A stretch of DNA of 28,352 bases from an uncultured Kineosporiaceae bacterium (GTDB taxonomy: Bacteria; Actinomycetota; Actinomycetes; Actinomycetales; Kineosporiaceae). Positions 1 to 24,422 of this stretch are shown piece after piece (the stretch's first letter is position 1; each line of letters starts with the position of its first letter). The translations under genes and the position numbers were made by a program. Location: positions 1-28,352 of the forward strand of contig CAYYCE010000003.1 of NCBI GenBank assembly GCA_964469635.1, given 5' to 3'. The notes under the pieces are model-generated. The model had not been told where the DNA came from. It searched no databases and saw only the letters and a list, made by a program, of their open reading frames with translations.

Positions 1-603
1 AGTTCGAGCTGCGGCAGGTACTGCGCAAGCGTGGCCGCCTGCGATGCCTCGCGCCGCCGGTTGGGTGTGGAGGCCATCGGCCTCTACCAGTTCCATCGGC
101 CGGACCCGGCAATCCCGTACGAGGACTCGATCGGTGCCATTCGCGACCTGCTGGATGACGGCGCCATCCGCATGGCCGGCATCTCGAACGCGAGCCCCGA
201 CCAGATCAGACTCGCCAACGGCGTCCTCGGCGGGCGCTTGGTCAGCGTCCAGAACCAGTTCTCCCCCTCCTTCCGTTCCAGCGAGCCGGAGCTCGAGCTG
301 TGTGACGAACTGGGCATCGCGTTCCTGCCGTGGAGCCCCTTCGGCGGCATCCGCCGGGCGGGGAGCCTGGGGCAGCGGTTCGGCGCGTTCCAGCTGGTCG
401 CCGACGCCCACGGCGTCAGCCCCCAGCAGGTGTGCCTGGCCTGGATGCTCGCCAGGTCCCCGGTCGTCGTCCCGATCCCCGGGGCCTCACGGCCGGAGTC
501 GATCCTCGACAGCGTGGGGGCCGCCGACCTCGTTCTGGACGGCGACGAGCTCGCCGCACTCGGCGGGGTACCCTCCGACTGGCCCGTCGGTGACGCGCCG
601 TGA
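1..603 (+). CDS. Aldo/keto reductase family protein, 5'-truncated by the window edge
   Basis: Frame 1 is open from base 1 to TGA at 601-603. It contains AKR motifs ACDASRRRLGVEAIGLYQFHRPDP, GISN, SVQNQFS, FLPWSPFGG, QVCLAWML and VVPIPGAS. The first ~10 codons do not look AKR-like, so the 5' boundary is uncertain. Confidence 0.9.
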   Translation, partial: SSSCGRYCASVAACDASRRRLGVEAIGLYQFHRPDPAIPYEDSIGAIRDLLDDGAIRMAGISNASPDQIRLANGVLGGRLVSVQNQFSPSFRSSEPELELCDELGIAFLPWSPFGGIRRAGSLGQRFGAFQLVADAHGVSPQQVCLAWMLARSPVVVPIPGASRPESILDSVGAADLVLDGDELAALGGVPSDWPVGDAP

Positions 604-616
604 CCCTCGAAGTTCT

Positions 617-697
617 CATGTGCGGCATCGGGCCCGTCCCCGCTGAGCAACGCGTGACGTTGTGCCCGTCGAGCGGGCACAACGTGACGTTGTGCCC
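617..697 (-). repeat. 81-bp dispersed palindromic element, copy 1 (23-bp palindrome, 7-bp spacer, 23-bp palindrome, 28-bp tail)
   Basis: GGGCACAACGT-G-ACGTTGTGCCC at 675-697 is a perfect palindrome. A degenerate unit GAGCAACGCGTGACGTTGTGCCC lies at 645-667, with spacer 668-674. The reverse complement of 617-644 aligns gaplessly with the tails of the copies at 6672 and 18270. Confidence 0.9.
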
Positions 698-735
698 GGG
701 GGGGTTGCGCGGGGATGCGGAGGGAAGGGGGGCGG

Positions 736-1092
736 GTGGCGGTTGAGATGAGCCGGGAGCGGTTCGAGGAGGCCGTGGCCGATGCCCTCGACTCGATCCC
801 GCCCGAGCTGACCGACATGATGGACAACGTGGTCATCCTGGTCGAGGACGACGCTCCCGCCGACGAGCCCGGTCTGTTGGGACTCTACGAGGGTGTACCG
901 CTGACCGAACGGGACGGCGCGTGGGCCGCCGGGGCCCTGCCAGACCGGATCATGATCTTTCGCCGCCCGACGCTGGCCGTCTGCCACACCGTCGAGGACG
1001 TCGTCGAGGAGGTCGCGGTGACCGTCGTCCACGAGATCGCCCATCACTTCGGGATCGACGACGGGCGACTCCACGAACTGGGCTGGGGCTGA
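736..1092 (+). CDS. Zincin-like metallopeptidase family protein (DUF1025-type minimal zincin)
   Basis: LLGLYEGVPLTER, LPDRIMIFRRP and the HExxH motif in TVVHEIAHHFGIDD. GTG at 736 follows a purine-rich RBS; ATG at 748 is an alternative start. Confidence 0.9.
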   Translation: MAVEMSRERFEEAVADALDSIPPELTDMMDNVVILVEDDAPADEPGLLGLYEGVPLTERDGAWAAGALPDRIMIFRRPTLAVCHTVEDVVEEVAVTVVHEIAHHFGIDDGRLHELGWG

Positions 1093-1126
1093 CCGGTCGT
1101 CGCGGGATCGCTACCGCGACTCGCCA

Positions 1127-1140
1127 GGGACCTAGGACCT
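1127..1140 (+). promoter_or_regulatory. Possible DosR/DevR-type box
   Basis: GGGACCTAGGACCT differs at 2 of 14 positions from the palindrome GGGACCTAGGTCCC and resembles the DosR core GGGACTWWAGTCCC. It ends 36 nt before the PNPOx-like start codon. Confidence 0.3.
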
Positions 1141-1176
1141 GTTGGCCGATTTTCCCGACGATGGAACGATCCGGGT

Positions 1177-1653
1177 ATGGATGCTGAGCCGACGACTCCT
1201 GGAATCGACCCGGTGGCGCGTGCGACCGGCGCCATGGAGATCCTCACCGAAGAGCAATGCTGGTCGCTCCTGGGCTCGGTGGAGGTGGGTCGGTTGGCTG
1301 TCGCGGCCGCCGGTGAGGTCGACATCTTCCCGGTGAACTTCCTGATCAACGAGCGCACGATCATGTTCCGTAGTGCCGAGGGCACCAAGCTGGTCGAGGT
1401 CGTTCTCGCCGGCCGGGTCGCGTTCGAGATCGACGGCTACGATCCCGAGCGCGGGCGAGCCTGGAGCGTCGTCTGCAAGGGGCAGGCCGAGCTGCTGGAC
1501 AAGTGGGACGACATCTACGCGGCCCAGGACCTGCCCCTGTTCCCGTGGAACCACTCCCCGAAGGAGCGGTTCGTGAGGATCACCCCCTACGAACTGTCCG
1601 GGCGACGGTTCACGGTGTATGCGACCAGGGACGGCGACGAGCCCAAGCTCTGA
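1177..1653 (+). CDS. Pyridoxamine 5'-phosphate oxidase-like flavin-binding protein (Pyridox_ox_2/NimA-like)
   Basis: LTEEQCWSLLGSVEVGRLAV, DIFPVNF, IMFRSAEGTKL, VAFEIDG, AWSVVCKG, PW and FVRITPYELSGRRF are typical split-barrel family motifs. Confidence 0.88.
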   Translation: MDAEPTTPGIDPVARATGAMEILTEEQCWSLLGSVEVGRLAVAAAGEVDIFPVNFLINERTIMFRSAEGTKLVEVVLAGRVAFEIDGYDPERGRAWSVVCKGQAELLDKWDDIYAAQDLPLFPWNHSPKERFVRITPYELSGRRFTVYATRDGDEPKL

Positions 1654-4788: not shown

Positions 4789-6642
4789 ATGACCTGGACC
4801 GTGGCGATCGCCGCCGCGTTGCTCTTCGGCGGCGCCGGCTATATCGCCCTGGGCGCCTACGTCTGGCGGCGGCGGCGCGTGCCCGCCGCCGACGCCCTGC
4901 TCGTCGCCCTGTTCGGCAGTTTCCTGTGGGCCACCGGCTACGCGATCGAGATGACGACCCGGACGATCCCGGCGGCCACCGTGTGGAGCAGCACCAAGCA
5001 CATCGGGATCCTCATCCTGACCCCGGCGCTGCTGGCCTTCGCGGTGGAGTACACCGGCCGTGGCCGGCGCCTGACCCGACGGGGGCTGCTGCTGCTGTCG
5101 ATCGAGCCGCTGTTCATCCTGGTGGTGCTGGTCACACCGGGGTGGCACCACCTGATCCTGCCCTACCGCGATCTCAAGATCGCGACGAAGGACACGCCCT
5201 GGCCGATCCCCGGCAGCGGTCCCCTCTTCGTGCCGCACACCGTGTACTGCTACATCGTCCTGATGAGTGCGGTGGCGCTGCTGGCGGGGCGGCTGCTGCG
5301 GCTGGCGCGCCCGTACCGCCGTCCGGCCGTGACCATCATCCTCGTCTCGCTGACGCCCCTGCTCGGCAACATGTTCTACAACTTCGTCTACTCCGTCATC
5401 GACCCCACGCCCTTCTTGTTCGTGCTGCTCATGGTGGTACTGGTCTGGGGCTTCCTGCGGATGGGGCTGATCGACCTGGTCCCGATCGCCCGCGGCGCGG
5501 TGATGGAGCAGATGGCCGACGCGGTGCTGGTGCTGGACGCCTACAACCGGGTGCTCGACGTCAACCCCGCGGCGACGGTGATGCTCGGGGTGAGCGGCCC
5601 GCGCCTGGTGGGCCGCCTCGCCGAGGAGGTGCTGCCCCCGGTCTCCGACGCCTTCGAGAGGCATTGGCCGGGGGGATCGGCGCAGGTGGAGGTCTCCACC
5701 ACCACCGACAAGCTGGGCAGGTCCGGCGCCGACCCCGTGCACCTCGCCGTCCAGCTCAACTCGCTCGTGGACCGCAACGGGAGCGAGGCCGGCAAGCTGC
5801 TGGTGCTGCGGGACGTCACCGAGCGCACCGAGACCGAGCGCAAGCTGCGGGAGTTGCTGGATGCCGAGACCCACCTGGCCACCGTGTTGCAGACGAGTCT
5901 GCGGCCGGCGTCGCTGCCGACGGTGCCCGGGATCCGGCTCGCGGCGCGATCGCTGCCGGCCGGCCACGGCACGCATGTCAGCGGCGACTTCTACGACGTC
6001 CACCAGGCGCTCGGCGGCGACTGGGCGTTCGTGCTGGGGGATGTCGCCGGCAAGGGCGTGCACGCCGCCGTGGTGACTTCGATGGCGCGCTACACGGTCC
6101 GCACCCTGAGCGCCCAGGGGTGGTCGCCGAAGCAGGTCATCGAGCAGCTCAACCAGGCGTTGCTGGTCGACGTGGGGCCGGAACGGTTCTGTACCGTGGT
6201 CTACGGGCGGATCGGCGAGCGCAGCGTCGACGTCGACGGCCGGCCGCCGCCGGGGATCCGGCTGACCATCGCCCTGGGGGGACACCCGGCGCCGCTTGTA
6301 CGTCGCGTGGACGGCCGGATCGAGGCGATCGGCCGCTCCGGGACGGCGCTGGGCATCGTGCCGGTGGTCGACATCGAGGAGGTGACCGTCGAACTGGAGC
6401 CCGGGGAGGTGATGGTGGCGTTCACGGACGGTGTGACCGAGGCCCGCTGCGAGGGGGTCGAGTTCGGCGAGGAGCGTCTGGCCTGGACCATGGCCACCAG
6501 CGCCACCGGCCTGCGCGGCCTCACCGGGGAGGCCGCCGCGGCGCTGATGGCCGACGCCATGGCCGACCGGGTGATGGATGCCGTGACCGAGTTCGCCGAA
6601 CACCGCGACGACATCGCCGTCCTCGTGCTCGCCGTCTCCTGA
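4789..6642 (+). CDS. Membrane sensor PP2C phosphatase: HisKA_7TM-like N-terminus + PAS + SpoIIE
   Basis: Multiple hydrophobic helices with W/GY..E and YTGR motifs; PAS (MADAVLVLDAYNRVLDVNPAA...VLRDVTER); SpoIIE motifs LQTSLRP, VSGDFYDV, LGDVAGKG, FCTVVY, GGHPAPL, FTDGVTEA, DDIAVLVL. Start chosen at ATG 4789 rather than ORF start 4711. Confidence 0.92.
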   Translation: MTWTVAIAAALLFGGAGYIALGAYVWRRRRVPAADALLVALFGSFLWATGYAIEMTTRTIPAATVWSSTKHIGILILTPALLAFAVEYTGRGRRLTRRGLLLLSIEPLFILVVLVTPGWHHLILPYRDLKIATKDTPWPIPGSGPLFVPHTVYCYIVLMSAVALLAGRLLRLARPYRRPAVTIILVSLTPLLGNMFYNFVYSVIDPTPFLFVLLMVVLVWGFLRMGLIDLVPIARGAVMEQMADAVLVLDAYNRVLDVNPAATVMLGVSGPRLVGRLAEEVLPPVSDAFERHWPGGSAQVEVSTTTDKLGRSGADPVHLAVQLNSLVDRNGSEAGKLLVLRDVTERTETERKLRELLDAETHLATVLQTSLRPASLPTVPGIRLAARSLPAGHGTHVSGDFYDVHQALGGDWAFVLGDVAGKGVHAAVVTSMARYTVRTLSAQGWSPKQVIEQLNQALLVDVGPERFCTVVYGRIGERSVDVDGRPPPGIRLTIALGGHPAPLVRRVDGRIEAIGRSGTALGIVPVVDIEEVTVELEPGEVMVAFTDGVTEARCEGVEFGEERLAWTMATSATGLRGLTGEAAAALMADAMADRVMDAVTEFAEHRDDIAVLVLAVS

Positions 6643-6671
6643 CCACCCCGCTCCACCCCCACCCCAGGGAC

Positions 6672-6752
6672 GGGCACAACGTCACGCCGTGCCCGCCTGG
6701 CGGGCCCGACGTGACGTCGTGCCCGGCGGGTGTGGGCCCGACGCCACTCAAG
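6672..6752 (+). repeat. 81-bp dispersed palindromic element, copy 2
   Basis: GGGCACAACGTCACGCCGTGCCC (6672-6694), spacer GCCTGGC, GGGCCCGACGTGACGTCGTGCCC (6702-6724), tail GGCGGGTGTGGGCCCGACGCCACTCAAG (6725-6752). Confidence 0.9.
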
Positions 6753-6859: not shown

Positions 6860-8077
6860 ATGCGTCACATCACCCAGTCCGCCAAATTGCGCGACGTCCG
6901 CTACGACGTCCGGGGGCCGATCCTCGTCGAGGCCGAACGGTTGGAGGCCGAGGGCCATCGGATCATGAAGCTCAACATCGGCAACCCCGCGCCATTCGGG
7001 TTCGAGGCGCCGGACGCGATCCTGCAGGACATGGTCCACAACCTGTCTCAGGCCCAGGGGTACAGCGACTCCCGCGGAATCTACTCGGCCAGAACGGCTG
7101 TGGCGCAGTACTACCAGTCTCGCGGGCTGATCGACACCCAGGTCGAGGACGTCTTCATCGGCAACGGCGTCAGCGAGCTGATCTCGATGGTGCTGCAGGC
7201 GTTCATCGACGACGGCAACGAGATCCTGGTGCCGGCCCCGGACTATCCGCTGTGGACCGGTGCCGTCACCCTGGCCGGCGGGAGGCCGGTGCACTACCTG
7301 TGCGACGAGGAGAACGGCTGGGCCCCCGACCTCGCCGACATCGAGAGCAAGATCACCGAGAACACCCACGCCCTGGTGATCATCAATCCGAACAACCCCA
7401 CCGGCGCGGTCTACTCCCAGGAGATGGTCGAGGCGCTGGTGGACATCGCTCGCCGGCACGACCTGGTGCTGATGTCCGACGAGATCTACGAGAAGATCCT
7501 CTTCGACGGCGCGGTGCATCACCACACCGCCACCCACGCCGGTGACGACGTCCTCTGCCTGACCTTCAGCGGGTTGTCCAAGGCCTACCGGGTGTGCGGG
7601 TTCCGCACCGGCTGGGTGACGATCTCGGGCCCGAAGCACCTGGCGGCGGACTTCATCGAGGGCCTGACCCTGCTGGCGAACATGCGGATGTGCGCGAACG
7701 TGCCCGCCCAGCACGCCATCCAGACCGCTCTGGGGGGCTACCAGTCGGTCACCGAGCTGATCGTCCCCGGCGGCCGGTTCTACGAGCAGGCCAAATTGGC
7801 CTCCCGACTGCTCAACGAGATCCCGGGGGTGAGCTGCGTCGAGCCCCGAGGGGCGCTCTACTGCTTCCCCCGGCTCGACCCCGACGTCTATCCGATCAAG
7901 GACGACGAGGCGTTCGTCATCGACCTGCTGCGGGTCACCAAGATCCTGGTCACCCACGGCACGGGGTTCAACTGGCCGAACCCCGACCACTTCCGGCTGG
8001 TGGCCCTGCCCAACGTCGAGGATCTGTCCGAGGCGATCGGGCGGATCTCCGACTATCTGGCCACGCTGCGGGACTGA
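6860..8077 (+). CDS. alaA: PLP-dependent class I/II aminotransferase, AlaA/AlaT (alanine transaminase) type
   Basis: QSAKLRDVRYDVRGP, KLNIGNPAPFGF, GYSDSRG, GNGVSELI, PAPDYPLWT, INPNNPTGA, DEIYEKI, PLP-lysine motif SGLSKAYRVCGFRTGW and GTGFNWPNPDHFR. ATG at 6860. Confidence 0.92.
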   Translation: MRHITQSAKLRDVRYDVRGPILVEAERLEAEGHRIMKLNIGNPAPFGFEAPDAILQDMVHNLSQAQGYSDSRGIYSARTAVAQYYQSRGLIDTQVEDVFIGNGVSELISMVLQAFIDDGNEILVPAPDYPLWTGAVTLAGGRPVHYLCDEENGWAPDLADIESKITENTHALVIINPNNPTGAVYSQEMVEALVDIARRHDLVLMSDEIYEKILFDGAVHHHTATHAGDDVLCLTFSGLSKAYRVCGFRTGWVTISGPKHLAADFIEGLTLLANMRMCANVPAQHAIQTALGGYQSVTELIVPGGRFYEQAKLASRLLNEIPGVSCVEPRGALYCFPRLDPDVYPIKDDEAFVIDLLRVTKILVTHGTGFNWPNPDHFRLVALPNVEDLSEAIGRISDYLATLRD

Positions 8078-17740: not shown

Positions 17741-18271
17741 ATGGCCTTTCGATCGACTCGACCACCCCGACGGCTCCGTCAAGCCGTGGTGCGCCGGCAT
17801 CGGCTCCGGTGACGCCACCGGATGGCCCGTCACCGACTGGGTCGAGGACGTCATGCTCCGCCTGGAGGGTCCCGACTTCTATGACAAGGGGGTCAACCAC
17901 GAGGTGCCGTTCAACGACCCCAAGGTCGCCTCAATGACCCCAAGGTCGCCGCGGTCTTCGACGAGGTCGGTCCATCCTGAAGAACCCCAAGTACGTCAAC
18001 GCCGGCCTGGGTGGCGTCACGGCCATCGCGTCGACCACGTTCCAGGACGGCGGCCTGCCGATCGTCCCGGACGCCGGCGGCAACGCGAAGTGCTACCTGC
18101 ACCGCCAGGCCTCGTTCTACGCCTCCAACTTCCCGGAGGGCACACACGTCTCCGAGAACGGCGACGTGTGGGCCTTCTACTTCCCGTCGATGGACGCCTC
18201 GAGCAAGCCTGCTTACCGCCGGTGAGTTCGTCGCCGCCTTCTCCGACAGGCCCCAGGGCCCCGGCCCTTGA
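17741..18271 (+). pseudogene. Degenerate AglE-like sugar ABC substrate-binding protein
   Basis: RBS GGAGG and ATG 17741 (MAFRSTR) jump directly to mid-protein KPWCAGIGSGDATGWPVTDWVEDVMLR...NHEVPFNDPKVA. A 20-bp tandem duplication at 17911-17950 and further indels shift the frame through ILKNPKYVN...KCYLHRQASFY...VWAFYFP and LTAGEFVAAFSDRP. The C-terminus is missing. Confidence 0.88.
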
Positions 18272-18350
18272 GCACAACGTCACGCCGTCCCCGTCTAACG
18301 GGCACGGCGTGACGTTGTGCCCGTTGGGGGTGGGTGGGATGCCGCTCAAG
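18270..18350 (+). repeat. 81-bp dispersed palindromic element, copy 3
   Basis: GAGCACAACGTCACGCCGTCCCC (18270-18292), spacer GTCTAAC, GGGCACGGCGTGACGTTGTGCCC (18300-18322), tail GTTGGGGGTGGGTGGGATGCCGCTCAAG (18323-18350). Confidence 0.9.
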
Positions 18351-18360
18351 CGGGCCGACG

Positions 18361-18408
18361 GTGGTCACATTCAGTCGTTGGTGACGCCCGGTCGAGGAAG
18401 GGCCGGGC
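18361..18408. repeat. 48-bp direct repeat, left copy (matches 22818-22865, the glycosidase 3' end and downstream flank)
   Basis: GTGGTCACATTCAGTCGTTGGTGACGCCCGGTCGAGGAAGGGCCGGGC versus GCGGTCACGTTCAGTCGTCGGTGACGCTCAGTCGAGGAAGGGCCAGGC: 42/48 identical, ungapped, and all six differences are transitions. Confidence 0.85.
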
Positions 18409-18409
18409 T

Positions 18410-18700
18410 TCCTCCGTCTGGGTGTGGCCGAAGGATGCGCCCCAACGGCATGCCCGTACACCGGGTGCGTCAACGAGTCGATGTCCACGAACGCCTGCCC
18501 GCCGATCCCCGTCCCTTCGTCCGCCGGCAGAACCACGTCCAGATCGTCGATGTCGTCCGCGCCCGCGGCCCCGCCACCATCGCGGTCAGCTTCGGGACCG
18601 AACCCGCCGAGACGACCAGGTTGGTCCCGTCGATCACCGTGCCGTGGCGGACCACCCGAGCGATGCGCGCAGGCCAGAGGGGACTCTCACCCTGCACCAG
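18410..18700 (-). pseudogene. Frameshifted coding remnant, possibly ROK family (sugar kinase/repressor)
   Basis: Two minus-strand frames with coding-like codon bias give HGTVIDGTNL...VPKLTAMV and then GAAGADDIDDLDVVL..EGTGIGGQAFVD....HPVYGHAVG. GTGIGG followed by hydrophobic residues and D resembles the ROK motif. No intact start or complete domain. Confidence 0.4.
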
Positions 18701-22727: not shown

Positions 22728-22817
22728 CCCTCCGTCGGTCGGCCCTCTGCCCCGAGCGCACACTCCGTCTCCCCTCGAGCGCGGTGCCGCCTCGGGTTCG
22801 CGAGTTGAGCATCGCGG

Positions 22818-22865
22818 GCGGTCACGTTCAGTCGTCGGTGACGCTCAGTCGAGGAAGGGCCAGGC
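22818..22865. repeat. 48-bp direct repeat, right copy (overlaps the glycosidase stop codon)
   Basis: 42/48 identical to 18361-18408. It includes the last glycosidase codons (AWPFLD, TGA at 22847-22845). Confidence 0.85.
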
Positions 22866-24422
22866 GCCGTCCGGTTCGATCCAGTCGTAGGTCTGTTCCC
22901 GGTCGCCGAGCCGCCAACGGGACGGTGTCGTGGACGTCGTCCAGTCCAGCGGCTCGGCGACCGGAGGCGTTCCGGCGGCCAGGGTGAATGCGTCCCGGAC
23001 GGCGGCCGCGACGGTCTGGGTCCGCGAGGCCGGGTCGACGGAGACGAAGGCGGGTGTTCCGCTGGCGGCCAGTAGATGCAGCCACTGGACCGCCTGTCGC
23101 CAGGGCAGGTCTGGCGTGATCGGGGCGATGTCGGCGTCCACGGCGTAGAGCGCGCCGTGCTGGGCGGCCCGGAACGCCAGGGCGTTGACTCCCATCCGCC
23201 GGCTCCGGTTCCACGACCGGCCCGAGGTGTCGTCGCCGATCCGCTGCAGTTCGACGTGCCCGGCCGACAGATGGCCGAGGGTGTTGCAGCCGATCACGAG
23301 CGCCTCGCCGCACGCCCGGCGGATCGTCGCGTACAGGTCGGTGACGATCTCGGCCGTGGTCCGGGTGCGGTCGGCGAACGCCCAACCGTCGTCCGTCACT
23401 CCGGCACCCATCTGGGGTCCCCACCGTCCCAGCAGGTCCCATGTGGTGAAGTCGTGTTTGATCATGGTGTAGCCCCAGCCGGTGATCCGGGCCAGCTGCT
23501 CGCGGATCGAGGCGGCCACCTCGGGGATGGTGGGGTCCATGGCGCCGCCGCCGCGGGCCAGTCGCCAGCGGTCGCCGTGCTCGGGCAGCGGTGTCAGCGG
23601 GCGGTACCACAGCCCGGGCCGGACGCCGCGCTCACGCAACCGATGCGCGAGCCCGCCCATGTGGCCGTAGCGGTGGTTGCCGATCCAGGGCCCGTGCCCC
23701 AGACCCCCGGCGGACCAGCCGTCGTCCACGACACAGTAGGGCCGGTTGCCGACGTCCGGTGAGTTCGCCGAGACGAACTCCGCGAGGGTGAGGACGACGC
23801 CGGCGTCGGCCCGGCCCAGCGCGAAGTGCCAGTCGTTGGCGCCGTACACGCGATGATCGGGCAGCCGGGGCGCTGCCCGTCCGGCCGCGGCCATCGCGCC
23901 GCAGAGCCGGCGCTGAACGGCGAACGCGCTCTCGCCGTCCGCGCCCTCGACGGCGACCACGTCGCACACGTGCAGCCACCGCTCGCCGAGAACGATCGGC
24001 GAGCCGCCGTTGCGGACGTCGGTCCACAGGCTCACGCCCGCCTCGTCGGCGGTCCAGAAGCACAGGGCGCCGGGGTTGGTCGCGACGCCGCACCCGACCG
24101 TTCGATCGGCGCCCGTGGCCACGAACGACCAGGGCATGACCCGTTCCGGGCGCATCGGCAACCAGGCCAGGTCGCCGTAGGAGCGTTCCCACGCATCGGG
24201 CAGCAGGTGCTCGACCTCCGAGAGGTCCGCGCGCCAACGCAGCCGGAGTCGGCTCACCGCGGCGCTCCCGGTCAGTTCGACCCGGACCACGCCCGCGGCG
24301 CCGTCCCCTTCGTGGACGGTGCACCGCAGCGCCAGCCGGACGTCGTCCAGCGCCACCTCGCCGTCGGGGCCGAAGGCCCGGACCCGGTCGGGCGGACGGA
24401 GCACGTCGAGGCCGACCCGCAC
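22845..24422 (-). CDS. Glycoside hydrolase of clan GH-D (GH27/GH36-like, alpha-galactosidase-like), no signal peptide
   Basis: TIM-barrel motifs YGANDW, VVDDGW, RPGLWYRPL, DPTIPEV, MIKHDF (nucleophile KxD), IGCNT and LQRIGDDTSG (acid/base D). Confidence 0.75.
   Translation of the reverse strand: MRVGLDVLRPPDRVRAFGPDGEVALDDVRLALRCTVHEGDGAAGVVRVELTGSAAVSRLRLRWRADLSEVEHLLPDAWERSYGDLAWLPMRPERVMPWSFVATGADRTVGCGVATNPGALCFWTADEAGVSLWTDVRNGGSPIVLGERWLHVCDVVAVEGADGESAFAVQRRLCGAMAAAGRAAPRLPDHRVYGANDWHFALGRADAGVVLTLAEFVSANSPDVGNRPYCVVDDGWSAGGLGHGPWIGNHRYGHMGGLAHRLRERGVRPGLWYRPLTPLPEHGDRWRLARGGGAMDPTIPEVAASIREQLARITGWGYTMIKHDFTTWDLLGRWGPQMGAGVTDDGWAFADRTRTTAEIVTDLYATIRRACGEALVIGCNTLGHLSAGHVELQRIGDDTSGRSWNRSRRMGVNALAFRAAQHGALYAVDADIAPITPDLPWRQAVQWLHLLAASGTPAFVSVDPASRTQTVAAAVRDAFTLAAGTPPVAEPLDWTTSTTPSRWRLGDREQTYDWIEPDGAWPFLD

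Follow-up and report, generated by a model that had tools for sequence, protein, structure and literature searches.

A family of phased palindromic repeats resembling REP/BIME elements in Kineosporiaceae and related uncultured Actinomycetota

To our knowledge, palindromic repeats of the REP type have been studied almost exclusively in Proteobacteria, and their spread there is accounted for by a GTAG tag together with a RAYT transposase. REPs of this type are imperfect palindromes of 20-40 bp that carry a conserved GTAG at one end and occur in many extragenic copies per genome, and two of them in inverted arrangement make up a REPIN. A hallmark of REP/REPIN-RAYT systems is a single-copy gene encoding the RAYT, a Y1 HUH transposase, that is flanked by the repeats. 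Such systems have been described in Gammaproteobacteria (Bertels & Rainey, PMC3116915; bioRxiv 10.1101/2021.07.10.451892). The BIMEs of Escherichia coli, as summarized in PMC2817692, consist of regularly spaced REPs in alternating orientation with conserved linker motifs, and the same source gives possible protein-binding and mRNA-stabilizing roles for them. A further group, the CGTC-tagged families CGTC-1 to -4, is characterized by an unpaired end tag, a stem of 8-9 bp starting with A/T, a loop of 4-5 nt, and a CCA tail (Di Nocera et al. 2013, PMC3733652); the main text of that catalogue names no actinobacterial host (0 occurrences of "Actinobacteria").

A palindromic element present in three copies in a 28,352-nucleotide stretch of DNA from an uncultured Kineosporiaceae bacterium (contig CAYYCE010000003.1, positions 1 to 28,352; hereafter the window) shares several traits with these systems. 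As in REP/REPIN sequences, short, imperfect, extragenic palindromes occur in high copy number, here within an element of ~100 nt; doublets are often able to fold into one long hairpin; and vertical inheritance, long persistence at orthologous sites, and genome-specific subfamilies are seen. Unlike REP/REPIN sequences, the element carries no GTAG tag (0 occurrences of GTAG or CTAC in 29 aligned elements, as had been reported for the window copies in a preliminary description of this DNA), its 7-nt linker is itself conserved, a degenerate third unit makes up a fixed tail, the proportions of direct and inverted doublets are those of independent orientation, no RAYT was found in ~0.6 Mb, and the host phylum is Actinomycetota. 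Regularly spaced palindromic units, conserved linkers, and a location at gene 3' ends and between convergent genes are shared with E. coli BIMEs, but the unit sequence is unrelated, alternation is not obligatory, and arrays of up to six identical units follow an exact 30-nt period. Like the CGTC-tagged repeats (PMC3733652), which are without a dedicated transposase, the element contains CGTC and lies mostly downstream of coding regions, and no transposase for it was found in the DNA covered. Membership in the CGTC-tagged families is nevertheless ruled out, given that CGTC here stands at the apex of a unit with 11-bp G+C-rich arms and a 1-nt center.

No match to the element was found in Rfam or in the GTAG/CGTC catalogue of PMC3733652, and no description of it was found in the literature searched, in keeping with the initial suggestion that it may be uncharacterized. 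There is little doubt that the window copies are members of a real, lineage-specific, REP/BIME-like repeat family; it falls outside the GTAG-REP and CGTC-REP families and is probably non-autonomous. With the tag absent and a transposase not found so far, the known range of REP-like elements is widened. The family also provides a clean case for how "orphan" palindromic repeats arise and persist, in that the core shows orientation, the phasing is fixed, and orthologues have flipped.

Anatomy of the element and of its copies in the window

The window has a G+C content of 70.6% and is chromosomal DNA with ordinary genes, encoding an aldo/keto reductase, a zincin-like protein, a PNPox protein, a GAF-PAS-GGDEF-EAL protein, a 7TM-PAS-SpoIIE phosphatase, an aminotransferase, an SDR, a PMT_2 protein, an FKBP, and an FAD oxidase. 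For the SpoIIE protein, the top-ranking homologues carry a Kineosporiaceae annotation, and no tRNA genes were found in the window. The three copies of the 81-bp element lie at 617-697 (minus strand), 6672-6752 (plus strand), and 18270-18350 (plus strand), all intergenic and with the sequences originally described, each with a 28-nt tail behind a pair of 23-nt quasi-palindromes that are spaced at exactly 30 nt. Scanning the window with the pattern GGGCACRRCGTSACGYYGTGCCC, allowing up to three mismatches, returned six matches, at 645, 675, 6672, 6702, 18270, and 18300, always paired 30 nt apart, versus 0.05 expected from shuffles (0 of 100 shuffles reached six). A search of the 28-kb window with a profile built from 29 family members recovered exactly three copies, in the orientations first given, with scores of 63-68 bits (E ~1e-19 to 1e-20) on the forward strand compared with 45-49 bits on the reverse strand; this profile detected no further degenerate copies.

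The canonical element spans ~110 nt and is composed, in order, of a C-tract, a unit, a 7-nt linker, a second unit, a G-tract, and a degenerate third unit. Units take two forms, X (GGGCACAACGTCACGCCGTGCCC) and Y, its reverse complement. The arms are symmetric (GGGCAC/GTGCCC and CGT/ACG) about a center of 1 nt, and positions 7, 8, 12, 16, and 17 are asymmetric, so that the unit has polarity. One strand of the dominant unit contains two A·C mismatches and the opposite strand two G·T pairs; the most invariant bases of the unit are those of the apex, C9-C14 (CGTCAC), and of the outer arms. The 7-bp spacer, at first regarded as variable, is in fact a conserved motif, GTCTRGC or its reverse complement. 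Of the leader, positions -12 to -5 are occupied by C in 16-25 of the 29 family members, and in the predicted fold this C-tract is base-paired to the tail's G-tract. The gapless length noted for the window copies extends to the whole family: its members align over 116 nt without a gap, the unit apex being invariant, and 29 of 30 tail-bearing copies from four genomes have the same length when counted from the first palindrome through the tail.

The 28-nt tail exists as described but resolves into a 9-nt G-rich linker and a degenerate third palindrome unit, which is non-palindromic (GGGCGYGAYGCCRCTCAG) and has five invariant positions. It occurs only beside units (28 adjacent matches versus one marginal solo match in 0.52 Mb), which rules it out as an independent host motif or target. 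Two other readings of the tail were rejected: consistent pairing into a hairpin of its own is absent, and the TCA that it contains coincides with the stop codon of a convergent gene in just 2 of 31 cases.

Units are nearly always paired at 30 nt, and arrays reach five to six units. Among 80 doublets, XX, XY, YX, and YY arrangements number 37, 22, 14, and 7, respectively, so that 44 are direct and 36 inverted, matching independent orientation (p = 0.75).

Copy 1, read on the minus strand, begins with a C-rich leader at 698-727, which on the plus strand is a G-rich stretch that extends as a C/G-rich flank to the start codon at 715. Its first unit (675-697) is a perfect palindrome variant, AA..TT, that matches the pattern exactly; a linker reading GCTCGAC on the minus strand (668-674), a degenerate second unit with three mismatches (645-667), and the tail AGCGGGGACGGGCCCGATGCCGCACATG (617-644) follow. 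The tail ends 13 nt from the stop codon (601-603) of the upstream aldo/keto reductase gene. The two alternative hairpins proposed for this copy are real, in that the arms are able to form pairs inside their own unit or, alternatively, with the neighboring one.

In copy 2, a C-rich leader (6645-6671) lies between the stop codon at 6640-6642 and the first unit (6672-6694), an exact pattern match in the X form GGGCACAACGTCACGCCGTGCCC that equals the family consensus. The linker GCCTGGC (6695-6701), a variant of GTCTRGC, separates it from a Y-like second unit, GGGCCCGACGTGACGTCGTGCCC, with one mismatch (6702-6724), and the tail GGGCCCGACGCCACTCAAG, G-rich linker plus degenerate third unit, occupies 6725-6752 (tail profile, E = 9e-4). 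Copy 3 comprises an X-form unit with two mismatches (18270-18292), the linker GTCTAAC (18293-18299), a Y-form unit that matches exactly (18300-18322), and the tail GTTGGGGGTGGGTGGGATGCCGCTCAAG (18323-18350), all on the plus strand. Copies 2 and 3 begin 29 and 44 nt past a stop codon, respectively, with the tail distal to it. The statement that each copy sits just past a gene 3' end thus holds for these two; copy 1 is also past a stop codon, but in the opposite orientation.

Family size, host range, and genomic position

Searching 185,579 species genomes with the exact pattern yielded 61 tiles, ~59 of which derive from three related MAGs: CAWGTT01 (G) and CAWHEL01 (H), both uncultured Actinomycetota, and JBAPWU01 (K), from the Kineosporiaceae. 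Two single matches, in Cellulomonas and in an acidobacterium, look like chance. The genome tiles, one metagenome contig (L001), and the window together hold 174 units in 74 clusters, and 206 units are reached when the metagenome contigs are included. The predicted high copy number was thereby borne out, with dozens of copies in the three MAGs plus a few metagenome contigs; the metagenome scan returned only 15 contigs. One of these, Ga0307417_10107629 (L063, the same match as that first recorded as L001), is 99.7% identical to window positions 500-1620. Plasmid and phage collections contained no match, and an origin from plasmids or phages was rejected on this basis.

A variant subfamily with the unit GGGCACGCTGTGACGTTGTGCCC and linkers such as ACCGAGT or GCTGAGC was observed in contigs of metagenome Ga0081539 (L064 5381-5523, L065 1045-1216, and L070 10433-10515). 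It forms arrays of three to six units with an exact 30-nt period, each of which closes with one unit of opposite polarity.

The position of the family was assessed with one crude gene caller run on all tiles. Clusters were found in 20 of 70 convergent intergenic regions and in 31 of the 289 that are tandem or divergent (odds ratio 3.3, p = 4e-4). The element thus sits in intergenic DNA and is enriched between convergent genes. An orientation bias was also evident among the 31 tail-bearing copies: 21 are in the sense orientation after a stop codon, defined as a co-oriented upstream gene with its stop 60 nt or less from the first unit, versus 3 that are antisense only (p = 3e-4). The typical distance from stop codon to element is 10-60 nt, in one orientation. 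Copies 2 and 3 of the window conform to this rule, and copy 1 is an exception. In practical terms, the element marks gene 3' ends in this lineage, is a likely cause of assembly breaks, and creates spurious open reading frames because runs of units translate as GHNVTPCP-like repeats.

Approximately 15 of 84 palindrome clusters in the relatives adjoin a short tandem array of two to eight copies with a period of 12-28 nt, whose repeated unit is an outer arm of the palindrome (GGGCAC... or ...GTGCCC) together with the adjacent flank. Examples are L012 6242-6329, L013 302-372, L021 3133-3205, L031 5310-5370, L049 937-1038, L057 3835-3910, L060 857-915 and 960-998, L069 3062-3115, L073 32-102, and L074 710-751; none adjoins a window copy. 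Judging by these abutting arrays, it looks as if the foot of the hairpin is a hotspot for junction duplication.

Persistence and in-place change at orthologous sites

In the lipB-lipA spacer, the element is present in CAWGTT01, CAWHEL01, and JBAPWU01 with differing architectures. At two further pairs of CAWGTT01 and CAWHEL01 loci, L046/L005 and L007/L026, the flanks are alignable, and the insertions are therefore orthologous. The tail and flanks of both pairs have diverged, and the units are still at consensus. Comparison of L005 7100-7215 with L046 5864-5979 and of L007 4804-4919 with L026 1279-1395 revealed that the 11-nt unit core and the 7-nt linker are inverted, and one of the two pairs also differs by one whole unit. 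These inversions at orthologous loci indicate that asymmetric segments between inverted arms flip in place.

Both occupied and empty orthologous sites were found among relatives when syntenic loci of 20-22 kb, fetched via homologues of the SpoIIE protein, were surveyed. Copy 2 follows the SpoIIE gene; this site, occupied in the window, is empty in five relatives (CAWGTT01, CAWHEL01, Kineosporia sp. R_H_3, and two further Kineosporiaceae MAGs). Between the aldo/keto reductase and zincin genes, where the window carries copy 1, the site is also occupied in CAWGTT01 and is an empty 38-nt spacer in Kineosporia sp. R_H_3, the flanks of which are too diverged for a target-site duplication to be defined. 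No recent insertion polymorphism inside one species was seen.

The surroundings of these sites differ in other respects. The aminotransferase gene (6861-8077) that follows copy 2 is missing from the syntenic loci of all five relatives (L079, L080, L082, L083, and L084), so that copy 2 borders a lineage-specific gene insertion. Four of the loci (L079, L080, L082, and L083) have an SDR gene downstream of the SpoIIE gene, directly adjacent to it in all but L080, and in L084 an ABC transporter takes its place. At the empty site after the SpoIIE gene of CAWGTT01, a different, repeat-rich palindrome, gatgtcgcggattcgcgacatcgcggatccgcgacatc, is present (L083 11960-12010). At the site of copy 1 upstream of the zincin gene of CAWHEL01, the sequence CCCCACTGAGTGGCGCTGTGCCC followed by a G-rich run (L079 4752-4774) resembles the reversed start of a tail fused to the last arm of a unit and, on this likeness, may be a deletion scar of the element.

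The persistence of copies at orthologous sites, together with a nearly invariant CGTCAC apex and arm bases beside a diverging tail and flanks, would also be expected of immobile host cis-elements, either binding sites for a conserved host protein of the nucleoid, gyrase, or regulator type or gene-end insulators, in which units are kept by selection and multiplied by local duplication alone. The 30-bp phasing, the stems without covariation, and the failure to find a transposase (see below) fit that explanation equally. Dozens of unlinked loci, however, share the ~110-nt composite, including its non-palindromic tail and genome-specific variants, which requires copying to new sites rather than local duplication. 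Diagnostic variants of this kind, for example GGGTGC in CAWHEL01, are common to many unlinked loci of one genome and imply copying from master copies. Sites are moreover empty in close relatives, and the neighboring genes are functionally unrelated housekeeping genes. Host cis-elements are thus considered an unlikely explanation. A repeat family spread in trans to intergenic sites immediately past the ends of genes would account for the same data, with inserted copies inherited vertically, as the orthologous pairs indicate in part, and changing in place through gain or loss of units, 30-nt tandem expansion, and inversion of core and linker, a course of events for which the differences between orthologues provide partial evidence.

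Candidate mobilizers, predicted folds, and possible roles

A search for a transposase or nuclease gene flanked by the element had been proposed, and none was found in ~0.6 Mb of element-bearing DNA. A motif scan for HUH plus Y in six-frame translations of this DNA returned nothing, phmmer with E. coli RayT gave no match at E below 10, and all-versus-all clustering of open reading frames near elements recovered housekeeping families only. Pfam analysis of 85 flanking open reading frames revealed housekeeping families and one tyrosine recombinase in a ParA/MipZ context, which is probably XerD, and no Y1/RAYT or other transposase was present among the best 25 families listed per set. Genes lying between two clusters were equally ordinary (an MFS transporter, NhaA, LacI, and an AbiEi-like open reading frame). 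The last of these products has 320 residues, is encoded at L047 593-1555 between two elements whose tails point inwards, has a GC3 below that of its neighbors, and weakly matches the N-terminal domain of the AbiEi antitoxin (E = 0.005).

The tyrosine recombinase bears on the idea that an integron-like or other site-specific recombinase uses the repeats as recombination sites, comparable with attC or VCR. Imperfect palindromes of fixed length, placed just downstream of open reading frames in a preferred orientation, are what such sites would look like. The copies are, however, scattered among core housekeeping genes and not in cassette arrays, no integron integrase was seen, the sole tyrosine recombinase stands in a context typical of XerD, and a unit center of 1 nt leaves no crossover region for recombination. 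The probability of this explanation is considered negligible.

The preliminary description had termed the element non-autonomous and REP/MITE-like. Its dispersed, extragenic, REP/BIME-like character is upheld, and the MITE assignment is not. A classical MITE, an internally deleted DDE-type IS with terminal inverted repeats and target-site duplications, would likewise be short, non-coding, dispersed, and structured, and its flanking C-tract and G-tract show partial complementarity, with 59% of cells paired. Against this, no parent IS carrying the element ends was found in 0.6 Mb, the left edge is fuzzy with no recognizable target-site duplication, arrays of one to six units with direct and inverted dimers are not MITE-like, and plasmids and phages are without a match, making a MITE highly improbable. 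Because no transposase was found, non-autonomous mobility is a property that we infer.

Elements derived from IS200/IS605 and associated with palindromes provide a closer parallel. They share with the present family subterminal hairpins, the absence of terminal inverted repeats and target duplications, one sharp and one fuzzy boundary, and an orientation bias that could reflect strand-specific single-strand transposition. They differ in that a TnpA/TnpB gene was not found here, a conserved target tetranucleotide was not identified, and the hairpins of the present element are near-identical to one another. Dispersal in trans might be the work of a sequence-specific protein that recognizes the invariant CGTCAC apex; an HUH/RAYT-like enzyme that acts on single-stranded hairpins is one possibility. 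That the mobilizer is specifically of the RAYT type is doubtful. A more speculative proposal, for which the prospects are poorer still, is that of a RAYT-independent palindromic repeat system in Actinomycetota, in which a protein not of the IS200 type would recognize the CGTCAC apex and would disperse and homogenize the modules while cores and linkers invert in place ("flip-flop"). If true, REP-like repeats would here be made and maintained in a new way, which might also explain the "orphan" CGTC-type repeats that have no transposase.

For all three window copies, both strands are predicted to fold into a long hairpin between units (z-scores from -3.2 to -6.0). In the 29-sequence alignment, 87% of cells are paired in the intra-unit helices and 89.5% in the inter-unit helix, but neither set of stems shows covariation beyond shuffled controls, so that a constraint on RNA folding is not evidenced. 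The independence of unit orientations within doublets further indicates that a perfect long hairpin is not selected. Conservation is best at the unit apex, which points to sequence-specific recognition by a protein rather than to a helix; judged from this pattern in the alignment, protein recognition of the sequence would appear to fit better than a purely structural RNA constraint. Of the two geometric constraints that had been put forward, the RNA fold thus finds no support in covariation, whereas a protein complex gains an indication from the conserved apex.

The same results bear on whether the copies are structured RNA genes or 3'-untranslated riboregulators conserved in sequence for an RNA function. 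The strong orientation bias downstream of stop codons and the very stable predicted folds are consistent with such RNAs. Covariation is absent, however, unit cores and linkers flip strand at orthologous loci, and promoter-like sites were not found. Rfam returned 0 matches at the gathering score, and permissive E-values brought up nothing but generic long hairpins (miRNA precursors) far below threshold. Functional RNAs of this kind are therefore regarded as improbable.

A role at the RNA level may nonetheless follow from position. Most copies of the REP/BIME-like family are in one orientation and within 60 nt of a stop codon and so are probably co-transcribed with the upstream gene. With a co-transcribed copy, the 3' end of the mRNA would carry a hairpin longer than 23 bp, which could act as a terminator devoid of a U-tract or as a barrier to 3' exonucleases. 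An intrinsic (Rho-independent) terminator consists of a G+C-rich hairpin followed by a U-tract. The element supplies the hairpin, but no T-run follows it, which rules out an intrinsic terminator; neither U-tract terminators nor sigma-70 promoters were predicted at the three window copies. The assignment of a 3'-end hairpin function to the element is tentative, with the chances slightly against it; if correct, it would bear on how transcripts end in high-G+C bacteria. As a whole, the explanation that we favor, with some reserve, is of elements that would have been dispersed in trans and would now serve as hairpins at transcript 3' ends.

A second small repeat of 57 nt, with 84% identity between copies, occurs in the window at 18360-18416 and 22817-22873. 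The first copy begins 10 nt past copy 3 of the element, and the other spans the stop codon of a minus-strand gene (22845-24422); no protein-level paralogy between the two copies was detected. The GC3 of an open reading frame upstream of copy 3 (17938-18225) is coding-like; Pfam gives no match to it, and it lacks an obvious start codon. Its product (…NGDVWAFYFPSMDASSKPAYRR) resembles the C-terminal part of a solute-binding protein and may be a remnant of one.
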